From Promethearchaeota archaeon (GTDB lineage Archaea; Asgardarchaeota; Lokiarchaeia; Sigyniarchaeales; SOKP01), in the NCBI GenBank assembly GCA_019058365.1, contig JAHPZE010000009.1, forward strand, positions 1 through 64,000: 64,000 bases of DNA, read 5' to 3'. Of this stretch, positions 26,176 through 40,517 are shown in pieces. The notes below the pieces were generated by a model. That model worked only from the letters and a program-made list of their open reading frames with translations, searched no databases and had not been told where the DNA came from. Position 1 is the stretch's first letter, and each line of letters starts with the position of its first letter. A program made the position numbers and the translations under genes.

Positions 26176-28590
26176 TTAATATTTTTTACGAATTTTTCTG
26201 ACTACAATTCCAGATATAATAACAATTAGTAAGGATATGAGGAATATATTATATCCTGGGATTTCGGGAGGCAAATCTTCCGTATCAATATATCCCATAG
26301 CGGATATTAATCCAAAAGGGAAAGTGGGCATTTCAATTATAATTGAATTTGTAGCGAAATTATATGTTACAGAAGTAAGATAGAATTCTGGCGGTGCTGG
26401 ATCCCATTCTTCTGTTCCACTCATGTTATACGCATAGAATAGGAATACTACACTGCTAAGGTCTATACTTGAAGGAAGTGTAATTGTCATGGTAACATTT
26501 CCAATAATTGAGCTATAGTTGATTAATAATTGATCAAAGAAAGCAAAATATGTACCTAATGGTAATGGTTCATCCACAGGATTCATAGGGAAGAAAGTAG
26601 AAATATATGCAGAATCCGAACCTATTACATCCATTTCTATAGTAACAGTTATACCTGAAGGAAAATAACTGCTTACTGTAAAAGTGTTAGTACCTGAATG
26701 GAGTGCTTGGTAAAATTTAGGATAAACCGAAATATAAGACCATTCTGATCCAGGACCCGGCATTTTCGTCCAACCGTACATCATAGTCATTCTACCTGAA
26801 ATTTCATCGAAATAAAAATGTAATTCTCTATTTACTGTGGTATTTTTAAGCAATACATGACCAGTGCTAAATGTTATATTATCGTAGACACCGCTCCACA
26901 TAACAAAGAAATCGGAAAGCTCAGAACTAGTGGTACTTTCAGGCATTAATATTGGTGGACCACCAACCTCAAATATTAAGGGTGAGACAGGCCAATAGAT
27001 ATTTGCTATAGCAATAATATTTTCATCAAAGAAAGTCCAAGATTCTGTGGATGGATTCCAAATTTCAAGAGAAGCTACAATATAAGAGAAAAATTGATAT
27101 TCTGGTTGACCTGAAGGTAAAACCAAGGGAATATCATAATAATTATAATCCTCAACGAGCCAAGTCATATTCGCATAAACTGTATGAGTTCCAATAATTG
27201 TTGCTTTAATATCATATAATTCGTCTTGATTGCTTTTGTAATAAATAACATGACCAAAATCGACGGACCAATCTACTAAAGTTTGAGTTTTTATCTCATA
27301 GTACATAAAACCATAAGGATTTAGCATTAGAAATGATTGAGTAATACCAGTTGTTTTATTTATTATGATTTTTACATGATCAATGCTTATAGAATTGCTT
27401 AATTCAAACTCTAAAAATTCATTTTCCATAATAATAATCTCATCAAAGTTCATTCCCTCCCAGATACGCAGTGTATCAAGATTCCACATAAATTCTATTT
27501 TTTCCAGTGGAATATTTATAGGCCAGATGAGAGGCAATATTGGATCTCCTACTTCATCATAATATTGGGGATAAAAGTTATTAGCCGCACCTACTATGAT
27601 ATTATCCATGAATTCATAATCTGTTCCATTCCACATGAACCTGTCAGCCAAGACAACTTGAAATACCATATAGATCAGACCATATGAAAAACCATTATTA
27701 GACTTTTCAAGTAGAATATCAGAAATTTCTGTAACTTTTAATTTAAAGTCAATAGCATCATCAATAGTATATTCATTCTCTATTGAATCATAGAAAATTT
27801 CATCTCCAATTTTAACACCCCACTCAACTTCATCAGTTATATCGTAATCAAATACCTGTCTCATTGAGGCATTAATTAACATTGGACCATCTCCCATATC
27901 AATCATCAAAAATACACTTCCATAATCCATCGTTCCGTTATCATAGTAATATCCCTCAACGAAAAATCCATCCGTAGAATTAGAGAAATATATTTTATTC
28001 GTCACATTATCAGATGTATAACTATCAAACGCGTTATATGCTCCCATTTGTGCTGCAGGATAATACATTGATTCATTTATAATTGGTGTTAAAACATCAA
28101 CTTCCAAACCATTTGAACCATTTATTGGAAGTATAAAGGGCATACCATTCTGACCTGCTCTAATTCTATGTTTTATCGGGTCAGTACTATTATACCCAAA
28201 TAGAGCGAGCTCTGTAGAGGGACCATACGCTTCTAATTCGTCTGAAGTGACATTATAATAACACTGTGTTGCATTTACTTGAGAGACTTCATTCTTTCCT
28301 AACCAATCAACAGTCCTATTTTCAATAGACGTAATATTAAAGATCCAGAGATCCTTAAACATCATTTCCACTTCACCAGTAGTACCATTAGCAATTATAA
28401 ATTCTCCTTCGAAATACAACTGATCTCCTTCATTAACATCCCAATGCCATTGATTATTAACATGTTCTTCTGGTATAAAAGGTCCTGCTTGAGTACTTAA
28501 GATTAAAAAACTAAATGTCATTGTAGTAGTCAAAAAAATTAGTAAAAGAACAATAATTCGCTTGTTGCTTTTTAACATCATCTTTAACAA
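26176..28590 (-). CDS. Cell-surface glycoprotein with IPGY (Loki-CTERM/PGF-like) anchor
   Basis: Signal peptide, many NxS/T sequons, three W.V..G...Y repeats, and EIPGY-TM-basic tail. Confidence 0.8.
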   Translation of the reverse strand: MLKMMLKSNKRIIVLLLIFLTTTMTFSFLILSTQAGPFIPEEHVNNQWHWDVNEGDQLYFEGEFIIANGTTGEVEMMFKDLWIFNITSIENRTVDWLGKNEVSQVNATQCYYNVTSDELEAYGPSTELALFGYNSTDPIKHRIRAGQNGMPFILPINGSNGLEVDVLTPIINESMYYPAAQMGAYNAFDSYTSDNVTNKIYFSNSTDGFFVEGYYYDNGTMDYGSVFLMIDMGDGPMLINASMRQVFDYDITDEVEWGVKIGDEIFYDSIENEYTIDDAIDFKLKVTEISDILLEKSNNGFSYGLIYMVFQVVLADRFMWNGTDYEFMDNIIVGAANNFYPQYYDEVGDPILPLIWPINIPLEKIEFMWNLDTLRIWEGMNFDEIIIMENEFLEFELSNSISIDHVKIIINKTTGITQSFLMLNPYGFMYYEIKTQTLVDWSVDFGHVIYYKSNQDELYDIKATIIGTHTVYANMTWLVEDYNYYDIPLVLPSGQPEYQFFSYIVASLEIWNPSTESWTFFDENIIAIANIYWPVSPLIFEVGGPPILMPESTTSSELSDFFVMWSGVYDNITFSTGHVLLKNTTVNRELHFYFDEISGRMTMMYGWTKMPGPGSEWSYISVYPKFYQALHSGTNTFTVSSYFPSGITVTIEMDVIGSDSAYISTFFPMNPVDEPLPLGTYFAFFDQLLINYSSIIGNVTMTITLPSSIDLSSVVFLFYAYNMSGTEEWDPAPPEFYLTSVTYNFATNSIIIEMPTFPFGLISAMGYIDTEDLPPEIPGYNIFLISLLIVIISGIVVRKIRKKY

Positions 28591-28731: not shown

Positions 28732-29475
28732 CTATTTGTTTTCGATTAGCTGTAACAATTCAGCTAACGAACTAATTAGTAAATCTGGCTGATTTTCAAT
28801 TAAAACCTCTTTTTTTGACACTCCACTTGCCACTCCTATAGTCCACATTCCAGCTTCACGTCCAGCGATGATATCAGAGGGCATATCACCAACCATTAAA
28901 AAATCTTCTCTATGAGGTTTTTCGTAATTTTCTAAAGGGGGTTGAAGTGCCATTGGATCTGGTTTTTGAACGGGAATTTTATCACTCCCATAAATACCTT
29001 TAAAAAAGTCGTATAGGTCTTCGTTCTCAAGATGCTCAATAATTACCTCTGTTTTATTATGAGAAACAATAAATAGATCATATTTTTTCTTTAGTTTTTT
29101 AAAAAGCGGTTTTACAGATGGAAAAAATGAAGCCTGTTTTGAATATTCTAGATACTTAGCAAAAATCTTTATTGCTATGCGCAATTTTTTAAAATAAGTC
29201 AAACTTTTAAGCGCTGTTATATATTTGAAAACTTCATAAGATTCGAGTAAGATTTTGGGTAATGGATAACCTTGAATAGTCTCTAATAAAGCTCCAATCT
29301 CTTGAATTGTGTTGTCCATATCAAATTCTGCTTTTTGGACTTCTTTTTCCAATACCTCTTCGATTGATTTTTCAAGGATTTGACGAATATCTAATAAAGT
29401 ACCATCAAAGTCGAATATTATTGCCCGAAGAGAACTATTTTGTAATCGTTGTATTAGCTGATTTTCTCTGGTCAT
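28732..29475 (-). CDS. HAD-family phosphatase (PGP-like)
   Basis: FDFDGTL, KPDP and VGDMPSD. Confidence 0.92.
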   Translation of the reverse strand: MTRENQLIQRLQNSSLRAIIFDFDGTLLDIRQILEKSIEEVLEKEVQKAEFDMDNTIQEIGALLETIQGYPLPKILLESYEVFKYITALKSLTYFKKLRIAIKIFAKYLEYSKQASFFPSVKPLFKKLKKKYDLFIVSHNKTEVIIEHLENEDLYDFFKGIYGSDKIPVQKPDPMALQPPLENYEKPHREDFLMVGDMPSDIIAGREAGMWTIGVASGVSKKEVLIENQPDLLISSLAELLQLIENK

Positions 29476-29690
29476 GATCTCACTATATGTAAACTATAAT
29501 TAATTAAAAAGTCTAAACGATAAAAACTATTTTAGTATAGAATTCAGAAATAAAATTTATCTCTCTACTAAAGTAAATCATAGTATGTAGTGATATAGAA
29601 ATATTCATAGAATAAATAAATTAAAAACTTAGAGAGAATAAAAAAAATTTTAAAATTAAATATAATTTAAGCATTTTTATAGATTTATTA

Positions 29691-30473
29691 TTATTCTAAA
29701 CGTTCTAACAATTCTCGAATTTTTTTCAATTCATCTAAACGTAACTCGCTTTTATTTATTTCTTTATGTTCTATTGAATTTTCAATTACAGAGGAAGTTT
29801 CCATCATTCTTATTCTTTCCCATATTGTTGCACGAATGAATTCTGATTGTGTTTGGTGCGAAAGTTGAGAAAATCGTTTAATTTCATTCAATTCATTGCT
29901 ATTAACTAAAAACTTAACTTGGATGCTTTTTTTTAAAGCTTTTTGAATAATAATAGGAAGTTGATTTAACAGATCTTCAACATTATCAGTCGATGTTAAT
30001 TCAATATAACCTATTAAACCTTCTTTTTTAACAAATTCTTTATATTTTTCCCTATCAATTGTTTCCAGTTTCTCAACTAAATCGCGTTTATTTCCAATTA
30101 AAAGTATAGGACATTTATCTTGTTTAATCTGATTCCAAACTTTTTTAAACTGTGTTTGATAATAGTCAAAAGTTTCTGGTTTAGATAAATCAAATACAAA
30201 AAAAATAGCTGATGCCCCAGTGTAGTATAGTGTTTGAAGTGAACCAAATTTATCATTCGCAATAATATCCCAAAACTGAAGTTTATAATCATGACCGTCA
30301 ATATTCACATTTTTAATAAAGAAGTTCACACCTACTTTTGGACCAGCATCTTCATGAAGAGATTTATCTGAAAACTGTTCAATTAATGTGGTTTTACCTA
30401 CTCCCGCAGCCCCAAGAACTACTATCTTAAACATTTCTTTATACTTTTCTTTACTTATTTTCTTTACCTCCAT
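29691..30473 (-). CDS. Rab-like GTPase fused to a C-terminal ribbon-helix-helix domain
   Basis: GAAGVGKTT, FWD and GNKRD, then IQVKFLV-NSNELNEIKRFSQLS-HQTQSEFIRATI. Confidence 0.8.
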   Translation of the reverse strand: MEVKKISKEKYKEMFKIVVLGAAGVGKTTLIEQFSDKSLHEDAGPKVGVNFFIKNVNIDGHDYKLQFWDIIANDKFGSLQTLYYTGASAIFFVFDLSKPETFDYYQTQFKKVWNQIKQDKCPILLIGNKRDLVEKLETIDREKYKEFVKKEGLIGYIELTSTDNVEDLLNQLPIIIQKALKKSIQVKFLVNSNELNEIKRFSQLSHQTQSEFIRATIWERIRMMETSSVIENSIEHKEINKSELRLDELKKIRELLERLE

Positions 30474-30495
30474 TTTTTATTTTTTATTATATTAT

Positions 30496-30564
30496 ATGTA
30501 CCGATCATGTACCTATAATTAAAAAAGAAATATTCCTTTATAAATCTATGTACTGAATATGTAC
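30496..30564 (-). promoter_or_regulatory. Promoter with four ATGTAC boxes (two 11-bp-spaced pairs) flanking TTTATAAA
   Basis: ATGTAC (+ strand) at 30496, 30507, 30548 and 30559. TATA at 30537-30544. Confidence 0.7.
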
Positions 30565-30673
30565 ATATACGATAGAATAAGAGAAAAAAACTCCTAACCT
30601 TTAAAATTAAAATATTCAATACTTTTACAAATATGTATGAAATTAAATATCGAGGATAAATAAAAAGGAAATG

Positions 30674-33034
30674 TTATATTGCAATATGTTCGGTTCTTCT
30701 AATAATCTCGTCCTGTAAATCAAGTCCTAAATTCACAAAATAGTCGCTATATCCCGCAACTCGCACTATTAGGTCTCTATATTTTTCTGGATTTTTCTGT
30801 GCAGCCCGTAAAGTATCTGCTGATACTACATTAAATTGTACATGATGACCATCCATTTCAAAATATGCTCTAATTAAATGAGCCAATTTATTAATCCTAT
30901 TTTCTTCTGAAAAAAATTGAGGAGCAAATTTTTGGTTTAGTAAGGTTCCTCCCGTTTTTAGATGATCAATTTTTCCAGCGGATTTAATAACTGCAGTTGG
31001 ACCATTAATATCCATGCCTTGAACTGGAGAGATGCCTTCTGATAAAGGAGTATAAGCCTTACGTCCATCTGGTGTGGCACCAGTTACTTGACCAAAATAA
31101 ACATGAACAGTAGTAGGAAGTAGATTAATACGATGTACACCACCTTTAGTATTAGGACGATTATCGATCGCGTTATAAACAATATTAAAAACTTGTGTAG
31201 TTATCGAATCAGCATAATCATTATCATTCCCGTATTTGGGAGTTTTATAAATTAATTTCTGTTGTAAAACTTCATTTCCAATAAAATCTTTATCTAAGGC
31301 TTTTATTAGGTCTTCCATAGATATTTTTTTTTTCTCAAATATATTATATTTTAAAGAAGCTAAACAATCTGTAATGCTACCCATCCCTACAATTTGTATA
31401 TATGAAGTGTTGTATTTGGCTCCACCATCATTGTAATCCTTCCCATTCTTTATACAATCATCGATTAATATTGAAAGGAAAGGGGCGGGATTTTGTGCCC
31501 AGATTCGTTCAATTATTTGATTTCCTTTAATTTTTATGTCTACAAAATGCTTAATTTGTTTTTTATAAGCTTTAAAGAATTCATCAAAAGTTTTAAAAGT
31601 TGTAGGCTCACCAGTTTTCAATCCAATCTGTTTTTTAGTTACAAGATCGAAACCATTATGAAGTGTGACTTCCAAAATTTTTACTAAATTAAAATATCCC
31701 GTTAGTATATATGCTTCTTTTCCAAAAGCACCAGATTCAACACAACCACTTGCCCCACCATTTCGGGCATCTACTATAGATTTACCCTGTCTAGTTAATT
31801 CTTGTATAATAGCATCGGTATTGAACACTGAAGGTTGACCAAAACCAGTTTTAACAATTTCAAGGGCTCTTTTTAAGAATCTATCGGGGGTCTTTGTACT
31901 AATCTGAACATTACTACTTGGCTGGACTATCCTCATTTCTTCAATTACATCTAATAACATGTAGGATACTTCATTGACTCCATCAGAACCATCCTCTTTA
32001 AGTCCGCCAATGTTAATATTACAAAAATCGGTATAAGTATTGCTCTCTTCAGCAGTTACTCCAACCTTTGGAGGAGCAGGTTGATTATTAAACTTCACCC
32101 AAAAAGCTTGAAGTAATTCATATGCATCTTCCTTGGTCAATATACCATTAGCAATATCATCTTTGTAAAATGGATAGAGATGTTGATCTAAGCGTCCAGG
32201 ATTGAAAGAATCCCATGTATTATATTCAGTTATAACACCTAAATGAATGAACCAATAGTGTTGGAGGGCCTCCCAGAATGTTCTAGGTGCCAATGCAGGA
32301 ACTCTAGAACATATCTCCGAAATCTTTTCTAATTCACTTTTTCTAATTGGATTTGCTTCATTTACAGCTAAAAATTTGGCTTCTTGAGCATGGCGTTCAG
32401 AAAAAGCAATTATCGCATCTGCAACGATAATCATCGCAGTTAGCTGTTCCCTCTTATCAAAAGCTTGAGGATCATTGAAAAAATCTAATTTTTCTATACT
32501 TTCTTTTATTTCGTTCTTAAAATCTAAAAATCCTTTATTCCATATGTTTTTTCCACCAACCGTATGTCCAGGTGCTCTCTGTTCCATAAACTCTGTGAAA
32601 ATTCCCGCTTCATATGCATCAATCCATTCATCATCAACTTGGGTGAAGATTTTATCACGAATAGATCTTCCTTTCCAAAAGGGAATAATTAGATCTGCTG
32701 TTTTTTGTCTTATATCTTCTGAAACTTTAAATGAAATTTTTTTACGGGTATTTAAAATCTCTAAATCTCGTAAACTATGGCAACAAACTTCTGGATATGT
32801 AGATGTAGCTTTTGGTTCTGGGCCACGTTCGCCGATAATTAACTCCCCTTTATTAATGCAGATCTTTTTATTTTCCATAATGTGCTTAAAAGCTTTAGCT
32901 CTCGCAATTGGAGCTGAAAACTTATGTGCAGCACCCATTTTATAAAACTCTGTCATTAATAAAGCACGTTCCAATGATATATAAGGAATTGCTTCACGAC
33001 TTTGTGTTCGTAGGTTTTTAATTCGTTCATTCAT
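30674..33034 (-). CDS. hypD: Glycyl-radical enzyme, trans-4-hydroxy-L-proline dehydratase
   Basis: EQRAPGH, WDSF, TYTDF, GCVE, YILTGY, LPTT and RVAGYS. Confidence 0.85.
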   Translation of the reverse strand: MNERIKNLRTQSREAIPYISLERALLMTEFYKMGAAHKFSAPIARAKAFKHIMENKKICINKGELIIGERGPEPKATSTYPEVCCHSLRDLEILNTRKKISFKVSEDIRQKTADLIIPFWKGRSIRDKIFTQVDDEWIDAYEAGIFTEFMEQRAPGHTVGGKNIWNKGFLDFKNEIKESIEKLDFFNDPQAFDKREQLTAMIIVADAIIAFSERHAQEAKFLAVNEANPIRKSELEKISEICSRVPALAPRTFWEALQHYWFIHLGVITEYNTWDSFNPGRLDQHLYPFYKDDIANGILTKEDAYELLQAFWVKFNNQPAPPKVGVTAEESNTYTDFCNINIGGLKEDGSDGVNEVSYMLLDVIEEMRIVQPSSNVQISTKTPDRFLKRALEIVKTGFGQPSVFNTDAIIQELTRQGKSIVDARNGGASGCVESGAFGKEAYILTGYFNLVKILEVTLHNGFDLVTKKQIGLKTGEPTTFKTFDEFFKAYKKQIKHFVDIKIKGNQIIERIWAQNPAPFLSILIDDCIKNGKDYNDGGAKYNTSYIQIVGMGSITDCLASLKYNIFEKKKISMEDLIKALDKDFIGNEVLQQKLIYKTPKYGNDNDYADSITTQVFNIVYNAIDNRPNTKGGVHRINLLPTTVHVYFGQVTGATPDGRKAYTPLSEGISPVQGMDINGPTAVIKSAGKIDHLKTGGTLLNQKFAPQFFSEENRINKLAHLIRAYFEMDGHHVQFNVVSADTLRAAQKNPEKYRDLIVRVAGYSDYFVNLGLDLQDEIIRRTEHIAI

Positions 33035-34983: not shown

Positions 34984-36594
34984 TTGAAATCACAAGATGA
35001 ATTAGGTGTTCCAATCCCAGCAAATAAACCATTAGTAGTAAGGACAATAAAAAAAGTTACAAAGGAACAACGTGAGTATGTACTCAAAAAAACTGAATAT
35101 AGTATGTTTTCTTTTCCAGCAGATTTAACTTTTGTAGATTTTTTGTCTGATTCGGGCTCTGGAACTATGACAGATTATCAATGGGCTGCTTTATTTCATG
35201 GGGATGAGTCTTATGCTCGCAATAAGGGTTATTACGTTCTTTTAGAAGCTGTTCGAGACACATTTGAGCGAGGTGATAATCCAAAAAGATCTATAGATTT
35301 AATTCTTACTAGTGAAACAAATGTAAAAAAACTCATTGATGAGCTTTACATAACTTCATATGAGGGAGGTTTTGCAAATGGAGGTATTCATCAATTAACC
35401 CGTCCTAATGCTTTCATTGTTCCACAAGGACGTTGTGCGGAACATTTACTATTCTCAACAATAGCTCCCCTCTTAAAAGAAAATAAAAATATTACTTATT
35501 ATATCCCAAATAATGGACATTTTGATACTACTGAAGCTAATATAGTAACAAACGGCATCCAAGCTATAAATTTGTTTTCAGCAAATCTTATGGAAGATTT
35601 TCCTTATGATGAAATGGATAAAAGAAATCCCTTTAAAGGTAATATGAATCTTGAAGGACTTGAGAACCTAATTCAAGATAAGGGTGTCGAATCAATTCCA
35701 TTAATTTATGTTACAATTACAAACAATGTAGCAGCTGGTCAACCAGTCTCAATGAAAAATATAAAATCGGTTTATAAAATCGCTAAAAAATATAATCTTC
35801 CTTTTTTCTTTGATGCCTGTCGTTTCAGTGAAAATGCTAATTTTATAAAAGAATTTGAAGAAGGATATAAAAATCACTCAATCCAAAGTATTGTACAAGA
35901 AATGTTTTCTTATGTTGATGGTTTTACTATAAGTTTCAAGAAAGATGGCCTAGCTAACATGGGTGGCGGACTTTTCTTTAGAGATAAAGGTCTTTTTCAT
36001 AAAAAATTTTCCATAAATGGAGATATTGGAATTAGACTGAAAGAAAGACAGATATTAACTTTCGGAAATGATTCATACGGTGGAATGAGTGGTCGAGACA
36101 TAATGGCTTTAGCTGCAGGGCTTTATGAAGTTATAAAACAACCTTACTTAAATGAACGAGAATATCAAGTAAGAGAATTTGCACGAAAGCTCGCAAAGAA
36201 TGGTATTCCTGTCATTCTTCCAGCTGGTGGTCATGCTGTATACATTAATATGGACAAATTTTTTGAGGGAACAGATATAAAAATCGAAGATTTTGGAGGT
36301 GTTGGATTTACTATCGAACTTTTAAAACACTTTGGTATACGAGCTGTTGAATTAGGTCCGTTCGCTTTTGAGTGGGATAAAAAAACACCCGAACAACGAA
36401 AAGGGATTTTGAATTTAGTCCGTTTTGCAATGCCTCGGAATTTATATAATGCTTCGCATATAGATTATACTGTAGCAGCAATTACTGAACTTTACCATAA
36501 TAAAGAAAAAATTCCTAAAGTTAGAATTTCTCGAGGCGCAGATTTACGTCTGAGACATTTTCAAGCAGGACTTCAACCGATTTATAAATCTTAA
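34984..36594 (+). CDS. tnaA: Tryptophanase-type beta-eliminating lyase
   Basis: DFLSDSG, GDESY, QGR, HFDTT, SFKKD (PLP lysine) and LRHF. LRHF is tryptophanase-type, whereas tyrosine phenol-lyase has LRFF. Confidence 0.8.
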   Translation: MKSQDELGVPIPANKPLVVRTIKKVTKEQREYVLKKTEYSMFSFPADLTFVDFLSDSGSGTMTDYQWAALFHGDESYARNKGYYVLLEAVRDTFERGDNPKRSIDLILTSETNVKKLIDELYITSYEGGFANGGIHQLTRPNAFIVPQGRCAEHLLFSTIAPLLKENKNITYYIPNNGHFDTTEANIVTNGIQAINLFSANLMEDFPYDEMDKRNPFKGNMNLEGLENLIQDKGVESIPLIYVTITNNVAAGQPVSMKNIKSVYKIAKKYNLPFFFDACRFSENANFIKEFEEGYKNHSIQSIVQEMFSYVDGFTISFKKDGLANMGGGLFFRDKGLFHKKFSINGDIGIRLKERQILTFGNDSYGGMSGRDIMALAAGLYEVIKQPYLNEREYQVREFARKLAKNGIPVILPAGGHAVYINMDKFFEGTDIKIEDFGGVGFTIELLKHFGIRAVELGPFAFEWDKKTPEQRKGILNLVRFAMPRNLYNASHIDYTVAAITELYHNKEKIPKVRISRGADLRLRHFQAGLQPIYKS

Positions 36595-39926: not shown

Positions 39927-40517
39927 TTGAGAAAAATCATGACAGATGATAAGAAAGAAGGACAATTAGTGTTTCATGGGCGTACAGAAATGATCTTTAA
40001 GATAATCGTGATCGGAGACCCCGCAGTTGGTAAAACCAGCCTTTTAACAAATTTCTGTGGTGAAAAATTCAATTATGAGTATATACCAACCGTAGGTGTT
40101 AACATCACGAAAGAACCAGTCACAATAAAGAACGATATGGGTAAAGATATAAAAATTAATCTAATGATTTGGGATATAGCTGGTCAGCCTCAATTCTATA
40201 TGTTACATCGGCCATATTTCAACGGTGCTGATGGAATGATGTTAGTTTATGATTTAACTCGCTCAAGCTCTTTCTCAAATATAAATAATTGGTTTTCAAC
40301 CGCAGTTAAATATGGACTTTCGGGAATTCCACGTCTTTTAATTGGTAATAAAATAGATTTGAATGAAGAGCGAAAGATTATATTACCCATGGCAGAGCAT
40401 TTAAGTGAAAAAATTGATGCGCCATTTTTCGAGACTTCGGCATTAACAGGAAAAAATGTTAAATTAATTTTTGAGAAGATGGCTAAACTTACCTTTAGTT
40501 CAAAATTGGAGGAATAA
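39927..40517 (+). CDS. Rab-like small GTPase
   Basis: GDPAVGKTS, PTVG, WDIAGQ, GNKID and ETSA are all intact. Confidence 0.95.
   Translation: MRKIMTDDKKEGQLVFHGRTEMIFKIIVIGDPAVGKTSLLTNFCGEKFNYEYIPTVGVNITKEPVTIKNDMGKDIKINLMIWDIAGQPQFYMLHRPYFNGADGMMLVYDLTRSSSFSNINNWFSTAVKYGLSGIPRLLIGNKIDLNEERKIILPMAEHLSEKIDAPFFETSALTGKNVKLIFEKMAKLTFSSKLEE

Follow-up and report, generated by a model that had tools for sequence, protein, structure and literature searches.

The gene considered here lies on the minus strand at positions 29691-30473 of the window, that is, of the whole stretch of 64,000 nucleotides of Promethearchaeota DNA that was analysed, in a host genome of 4.74 Mb with 29.5% GC and ~55 small-GTPase-like domains. 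Its open reading frame, read from 30473 to 29691, encodes 260 aa counted from the first ATG and comprises a Rab-like G domain (residues 14-180; 29934-30434, minus strand), a ribbon-helix-helix (RHH) domain (residues 184-226; 29796-29924, minus strand) and, behind a variable spacer, a conserved C-terminal amphipathic helix (residues 244-260; 29694-29744, minus strand). Such a fusion had been proposed in a sequence-only reading of the same DNA, and both halves bear it out: the Ras family profile PF00071 matches residues 16-169 (E 1e-30), and 28 of 28 aligned tails match NikA-like, an RHH-type model. Because ~60 homologues found in a homologue search share the fusion, an assembly artefact is excluded; the database labels of these homologues are mainly Promethearchaeota/Lokiarchaeota. 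Their Met aligns with an ATA codon of the window gene (30456-30458, minus strand), which sits 8 nt after a ribosome-binding-like GGAGGT (window 30456-30473, minus strand), the called ATG lying 5 codons upstream of the ATA and overlapping the GGAGGT site; relatives start with GTG or TTG. A T8 run (29640-29647, minus strand) ~45 nt beyond the stop, a candidate archaeal terminator, suggests that the transcript is monocistronic.

Two neighbours served as synteny markers, namely HypD (trans-4-hydroxy-L-proline dehydratase; 30674-33034, minus strand; NF043068, over cut-off) upstream and a HAD-family hydrolase (28732-29475, minus strand) downstream, between which and the RHH gene other genes often intervene in relatives. 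The neighbours vary across loci (HypD, HAD, CheR-like, MFS and steroid-reductase-like genes), the neighbourhoods of related loci hold no partner gene conserved beside the RHH gene, and the loci examined have no adjacent co-transcribed toxin gene such as a type II toxin-antitoxin layout would include. In relatives, the next gene after the RHH gene frequently encodes, in the same orientation, a CheR-like methyltransferase (below the NCBIfam cut-off; L013:5392-6465, L017:5527-6432 and 15 other loci), which is not found in the window.

The N-terminal domain has the fold of a Rab, the best structural matches of its AlphaFold model being Rabs (Foldseek E 3e-14 to Rab35), and it keeps part of the GTPase motif set. 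The G1 P-loop GAAGVGKT (residues 21-28; 30390-30413, minus strand) keeps its two Gly residues and its Lys without exception (59/59 homologues) and the P-loop S/T in 56/59 (lost in 3/59), and G4 NKRD (128-131; 30081-30092, minus strand) retains N in 55, K in 50 (lost in 9) and D in 57 of the 59. In switch I, PKVG (45-48; 30330-30341, minus strand), Lys46 stands in place of the G2 Thr; the homologues have Thr here in 2/59 and K/R in 51/59, against Thr in 53 of the genome's 54 other G domains. G3 reads WDIIAN (68-73; 30255-30272, minus strand), with Asp in 55/59 (lost in 4/59), Gly in 1/59 and the catalytic Gln in 0/59, against Gly in 48/54 and Gln in 39/54 of the other G domains. The states of the window protein at these motifs had already been described from the letters and were recovered; to them we add an altered G5, ELTST (29988-30002, minus strand), where Ser is kept in 58/59, Ala in 2/59 and Lys in 4/59. 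Compared with the canonical Ras/Rab switch, G1 and G4 are present, and the G2 Thr, the DxxG(Q) of G3 and the SA[KL] of G5 are not.

In the established GTPase mechanism, the G2 Thr and the G3 Gly grip the gamma-phosphate and drive the switch. The domain is most likely a pseudoGTPase that would hold guanine nucleotide and not cycle between GTP and GDP states. Binding of a nucleotide seems to us fairly probable from the motifs kept, and poor hydrolysis, also anticipated by the sequence-only reading, probably goes with it, since G1 and G4 are kept and the switch residues and catalytic Gln are lost. A GTPase fold with some G motifs missing is that of a pseudoGTPase as defined in PMC5593906, and the G1/G4-retaining pattern is that of proteins which bind nucleotide but hydrolyse or switch poorly (PMC5593906). 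Rnd and RGK (classes ii and iii of PMC5593906) share it, but the present G domain is archaeal and is fused to a DNA-binding domain.

The surface of the domain is of RabF type, and the aromatics of the Rab partner face, the triad F51/W68/Y83, are retained (W68 in 59/59, F51 in 51/59 and Y/F83 in 59/59 homologues); RabF motifs form the Rab surface used for regulators and effectors (PMC4915359). The Rab-closest Ras fold, the RabF-like segments and the aromatic triad are shared with the Asgard Rab-like small GTPases (Surkont and Pereira-Leal, PMC4915359), from which the family differs in having lost the G2 Thr, the Gly-Gln of G3 and the Ala-Lys of G5, unlike nearly all 54 paralogues in the genome, and in forming a clade of its own that always comes with RHH. 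This clade is long-stemmed (support 100; FastTree, midpoint root), and its family-specific conserved residues concentrate in alpha4/beta6 (E151, G152, G155, F147 and V148).

The elements by which the RHH domain had been recognised were located as the strand IQVKFLV (residues 184-190; 29904-29924, minus strand), a helix A (192-204) and TQSEFIRATI (208-217), which opens helix B (209-226) in the model. Among the 28 aligned tails, Q, K, F, L, S, F, I and R are invariant, the strand contributing Q185, K187, F188 and L189, and we infer that Q185, K187 and L189 face the DNA. The best match to NikA-like has an E of 6e-7, and RHH_1 is matched by 15/28 tails. In the orthologue P0017 (73% identity) the matches to NikA-like (29.9 vs 27), RHH_1 (20.5 vs 20.5) and Ras all attain their Pfam cut-offs, and the stand-alone relatives P0090 and P0096, found by profile search, are also above the Pfam RHH cut-offs; the tail of the window protein itself scores 20.4 bits (E 6e-4) with NikA-like, under the cut-off. 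Judged by these profiles and by the residue pattern, the tail is confirmed as a genuine RHH domain. A Foldseek search with the tail model returned mostly RHH proteins in its top rows (AtaR, TacA, Arc, KacA, Reg576 and ParD) at E > 1, and CopG superposes on the model at 0.8-0.9 A over 35 columns. The monomer model shows an extended segment followed by helices and no strand, as expected, since the strand of an RHH finds its pairing partner only on dimerisation; the intermolecular beta-ribbon of such a dimer lies outside what a monomer model can show, and the homodimer prediction (0.27 against a mark of 0.42) was given no weight as evidence. A wide VIA-align search with the tail model gave generic helical hairpins only (Z <= 6.8), PDB sequence searches with the tail gave no significant match, and its Atlas matches were RHH-labelled clusters under the 0.9 mark or at TM 0.5-0.6, which serve as leads only.

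Constraint within the gene is strongest on the RHH domain (pN/pS 0.23), followed by the terminal helix (0.35), the G domain (0.38) and the spacer (0.73). The terminal helix, modelled at residues 246-258, would be an oligomerisation helix and is possibly a remnant of a 50-aa module found in other members of the family, to the last helix of which it has a weak match of 8.4 bits (shuffled 95th percentile 4.4, maximum 8.8).

The DNA in front of the gene carries two copies of GTAC-N7-GTAC, which we regard as candidate operators. Operator 1 (30550-30564) ends 5 bp upstream of the TATA box (TTTATAAA; 30537-30544, minus strand) on its BRE side, with the same 5-bp offset in 25/32 loci, and operator 2 (30498-30512), at a distance of 52 bp from operator 1, overlies the inferred start of transcription. 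Box 2 is usually 52-53 bp past box 1 among related loci, and the DNA farther upstream has diverged. In 321 kb made up of 35 related loci and the window, GTAC-N7-GTAC occurs 61 times, always before an RHH gene, and GTAC pairs at any other spacing occur <=3 times; the box is present in 32 of the 33 loci with upstream DNA, the exception being a broken gene. The 4.74-Mb genome holds 14 exact matches, of which just the two fusion-gene boxes are intergenic, and a matrix scan ranks these two at the top with 33 bits, the next-best sites (21 bits and below) lying within coding sequences. Across the genus, 31 of 33 genomes with a fusion-type gene have the pattern (the misses being one variant spacer and one contig end), as do, in unpaired form, 3 of 21 without that gene. 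No 11-bp excess pointing to a wider regulon was seen beyond the gene's own promoter in weight-matrix and one-mismatch scans at seven spacings, which weak or single-core targets would escape.

The boxes stay with the RHH gene despite changed neighbours (L022, L033 and L034) or a gene inserted after HypD (L010 and L013), and a functional tie of the RHH gene to HypD or HAD was dropped as unsupported, since the operator remains with the RHH gene in loci where HypD or HAD has been displaced or is missing. By archaeal promoter geometry, a box over the BRE side and another over the expected start would make a repressor layout, and repression rather than activation appears likely. A sigma-70 promoter scan was discarded as irrelevant for archaeal promoters.

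The best sequence evidence that the tail binds the GTAC boxes is their coupling to the RHH strand. Proteins with a Q-x-K strand have GTAC pairs in 33/34 cases, including the stand-alone forms at L045 and L055; the lone exception is L048, where the box lies before an inserted SDR gene. Paralogues with an F-x-K-x-M strand have tandem GATC arrays in 18/18 cases and no GTAC pair, and several genomes contain both strand types, either type having an array to itself. On a 48-column tree, strand and operator change on one branch only (support 92/95), so the coupling counts as a single event rather than as repeated ones, kin being not independent. Binding of the boxes by the RHH domain is in our judgment very likely. 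The GATC type includes stand-alone genes of ~125 aa consisting of RHH and the 50-aa module (L036-L072, e.g., L041, L058 and L038), which occur in varied neighbourhoods, their tandem GATC arrays (period 9 or 11 bp) placed right after a TATA box, and are absent from the host genome. At L048 (1296-2021), from another genus, an SDR oxidoreductase gene has been inserted between the operators and the GTPase-RHH gene, and RHH control may extend there to the SDR enzyme gene.

The slot directly downstream of HypD is filled by GTPase-RHH, GTPase-module-RHH, LRR-module-RHH or module-RHH, all with twin boxes, and L032, L034, L043, L045 and L055 have no N-terminal domain yet the same operators. In the HypD tree the GTPase-bearing loci cluster together (95), separately from those with LRR or with the module only; since a basal GTPase form is found in another genus, the swap may have run in either direction. 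On the G-domain tree (FastTree, midpoint root), the forms that have the 50-aa module between G domain and RHH branch basally, and the short forms, the window protein among them, are derived and have lost the linker, so that alpha5 of the G domain abuts the RHH. Long forms have the module before the RHH, and stand-alone forms have a homologous one after it (46.7 bits); P0062/P0063 have the module on both sides, and it is absent from the window protein and the host genome. It reads R-x-x-I/V-M-x-E-L-K ... L-x-K-P-x-E-E-E-L-x-x-R-E over ~50 aa (P0045, P0051, P0066, P0077 and P0090; duplicated in P0077). By eye, we took it to resemble the WH2/RPEL actin-binding motifs, and this identity was abandoned when Pfam, PDB and Atlas gave no support. 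Between operator 2 and the LRR gene of five LRR-RHH loci (L027:3790-3940 and the equivalents in L028-L031) there is a ~47-codon ORF that opens with LKKPEQEE, a segment resembling the module.

No Roco-like ancestor combining LRR, G domain and RHH in one chain was found, there being no relative of 456-2000 aa (a weak test); COR is absent from the 260-aa protein, and in all the loci inspected LRR and G domain replace each other rather than occur together. The family also has broken copies: an in-frame stop separates the G domain from the RHH at L073:1501-2271, where the operators are intact, and degraded LRR-RHH and GTPase-RHH remnants occur elsewhere (L035/L052 and L069).

The search for the same architecture in Asgard genomes, which the sequence-only reading had called for, placed the ~60 fusions essentially in one Lokiarchaeia family, and a search with the RHH profile gave matches in 57 of the 134 genomes that represent the host family and in 1 further genome among 400 of the phylum. 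The GTPase-RHH family is a lineage-specific invention of essentially that one family, and this restriction means that it is not an ancestral eukaryotic trait. Near-identical syntenic loci occur in records titled Hodarchaeota, Hermodarchaeota, Thorarchaeota, Odinarchaeota and Thermoplasmatales (L004, L006-L009, L018, L021, L022 and L032), and these titles are probably mislabelled because the genome search places the family essentially in one Loki family.

What can be read from the DNA, namely the architecture, the RHH identity, the position, conservation and strand coupling of the operators, the loss of switch residues and the domain swapping, leads us to prefer a self-limiting expression cassette, to which we give about an even chance of being right: the gene would repress itself and thereby set the dose of a nucleotide-bound, switch-less, partner-binding domain. 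RHH dimers would insert their paired beta-strands at the GTAC cores, each box holding two dimers one helical turn (11 bp) apart and cooperative as with RelB, and with one box over the BRE side of the TATA box and the other over the start site, the fusion protein would repress its own gene. The Rab-like domain would bind nucleotide structurally and present a fixed Rab-type partner-binding face. The output of the circuit would be the amount of this N-terminal domain, because the gene itself is the only visible target. By analogy with RHH antitoxins and PutA, repression would probably be relieved once the protein is bound or sequestered by a partner, be it a GEF-, GDI- or effector-like protein or a site on a membrane. 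The partner-binding role and the feedback have, in our estimate, slightly better than even prospects. Counting against the cassette, the K/R found at position 46 in 51/59 homologues could, together with an acidic switch II, make up a nucleotide sensor of a non-canonical kind. It is a serious though lesser possibility that the Rab-like domain is a true input, its nucleotide state or a Rab-regulator-like partner directly controlling DNA binding by the RHH.

The sequence-only reading had cast the protein as a GTP-sensing one-component regulator. A regulator in one polypeptide it does appear to be, given the RHH domain and its coupled operators, but a GTP-sensing role of the G domain is doubtful. 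In a broader version of that proposal, GTP, GDP or a related nucleotide such as (p)ppGpp would tune DNA binding, with occupancy altering G-G or G-RHH contacts via alpha5, which leads straight into the RHH strand. The invariant G1 and mostly retained G4, the purifying selection on the G domain, the alpha5 brought against the RHH by loss of the linker, the conserved alpha4/beta6 cluster as a plausible dimer face and a K/R at the G2 position that could contact a phosphate all fit it. Nevertheless, we consider it unlikely: both canonical gamma-phosphate sensors (the G2 Thr and G3 Gly) are lost family-wide, some members lack the G3 Asp, the G4 Lys or the P-loop Thr/Ser, the G domain can be exchanged for LRRs or be absent under the same operators, and no target was found beyond the gene's own promoter, which leaves a GTP signal without a visible regulon to control.

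The same operators before relatives with no N-terminal domain would suit instead a G domain captured once that lost its switch and now serves as a nucleotide-stabilised oligomerisation or stability tag with no input or partner. The broken copies (the L073 stop and the degraded L035), the long stem branch and the relaxed G motifs agree with such a passenger, yet the G domain is held at about half the pN/pS of the spacer, it retains its Rab partner-face aromatics, and an autorepressor with neither cargo nor another target would have no evident use; we think this quite improbable. Least probable by far, in our opinion, is that a foreign regulator binds the GTAC boxes and the RHH-like tail is a dimerisation element only. 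The sub-threshold Pfam scores of the window tail alone, the strandless monomer model and the Foldseek E-values above 1 would allow it, but the boxes are essentially restricted to genomes and positions having the RHH gene and change together with the RHH strand, in which Q, K, F and L are invariant in the 28 tails.

The autorepressing cassette resembles the Arc/Mnt/CopG/RelB-type repressors in its strand-helix-helix arrangement, in the S-x-F-I-R start of helix B and in short cores about one helical turn apart over the protein's own promoter, and Mnt has a C-terminal helix after the RHH, as in the fusion protein. With RelB, the binding of dimers to neighbouring half-sites on one face of the DNA is cooperative (PMC2812701). 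Unlike in these repressors, a Rab-like domain of 170 aa here precedes the RHH, whose position is internal or C-terminal, the promoter is an archaeal one with TATA/BRE, and the loci examined have no toxin or phage/plasmid context. PutA, NikR and MetJ likewise combine RHH with another domain in one polypeptide; the input of NikR is nickel and that of MetJ is SAM, with the RHH N-terminal in both. PutA is an RHH-enzyme fusion and an autogenous repressor of its genes (PMC5293562), but its input is the proline/FAD state and its RHH is N-terminal. The accessory domain of the present family differs from those of all three in being a Ras-superfamily fold that is exchangeable with LRRs. CodY is a GTP-responsive bacterial transcription factor with GAF and winged HTH domains, no P-loop and a large regulon, and its likeness is one of idea only (guanine nucleotide and DNA binding in one protein), the folds being unrelated.

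The remark that no example had been described agrees with our literature search, which found no paper on a GTPase-RHH fusion or on a Ras-superfamily accessory domain on RHH, subscription papers and asCOG supplements being mostly outside its reach. RHH autorepressors with accessory domains are already known, and a Ras-superfamily accessory domain is apparently undescribed; what the present analysis adds is the common locus, the statistics on the switch residues, the coupling of GTAC or GATC to the strand and the history of the module. Ras-superfamily proteins normally act on transcription via long cascades, and to our knowledge almost no small GTPase in this eukaryote-related lineage has a known partner or output. 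Here, a Ras-type protein is physically part of a DNA-binding protein, and the candidate operator is a built-in read-out, so that a 75-bp DNA probe (30494-30568) can report the responses of an Asgard Rab-like domain. If that domain is the true input, a Ras-superfamily protein would itself be a transcription factor, and the family would be a set of modular Asgard regulators in which a Rab-like domain, LRRs or possibly an actin-binding 50-aa module are swapped before one RHH under one promoter design. Confined to one Lokiarchaeia family, it has little bearing on the eukaryotic ancestor, and its own gene is its only visible target; it does offer domain shuffling in action, one locus being occupied by stand-alone RHH, LRR-RHH or GTPase-RHH, and a natural case in which the specificity of RHH-DNA recognition has changed in one step (GTAC vs GATC).

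Elsewhere in the window, an 804-aa protein (26176-28590, minus strand) with a signal-like N-terminal segment, a C-terminal membrane anchor and no Pfam match is conserved near the fusion locus in 8 loci. A tryptophanase-family gene (34984-36594, plus strand) points together with HypD to amino-acid fermentation, and the host genome has seven glycyl-radical-enzyme homologues. A canonical Rab-like paralogue with PTVG, WDIAGQ and NKID is encoded at 39939-40517 on the plus strand.
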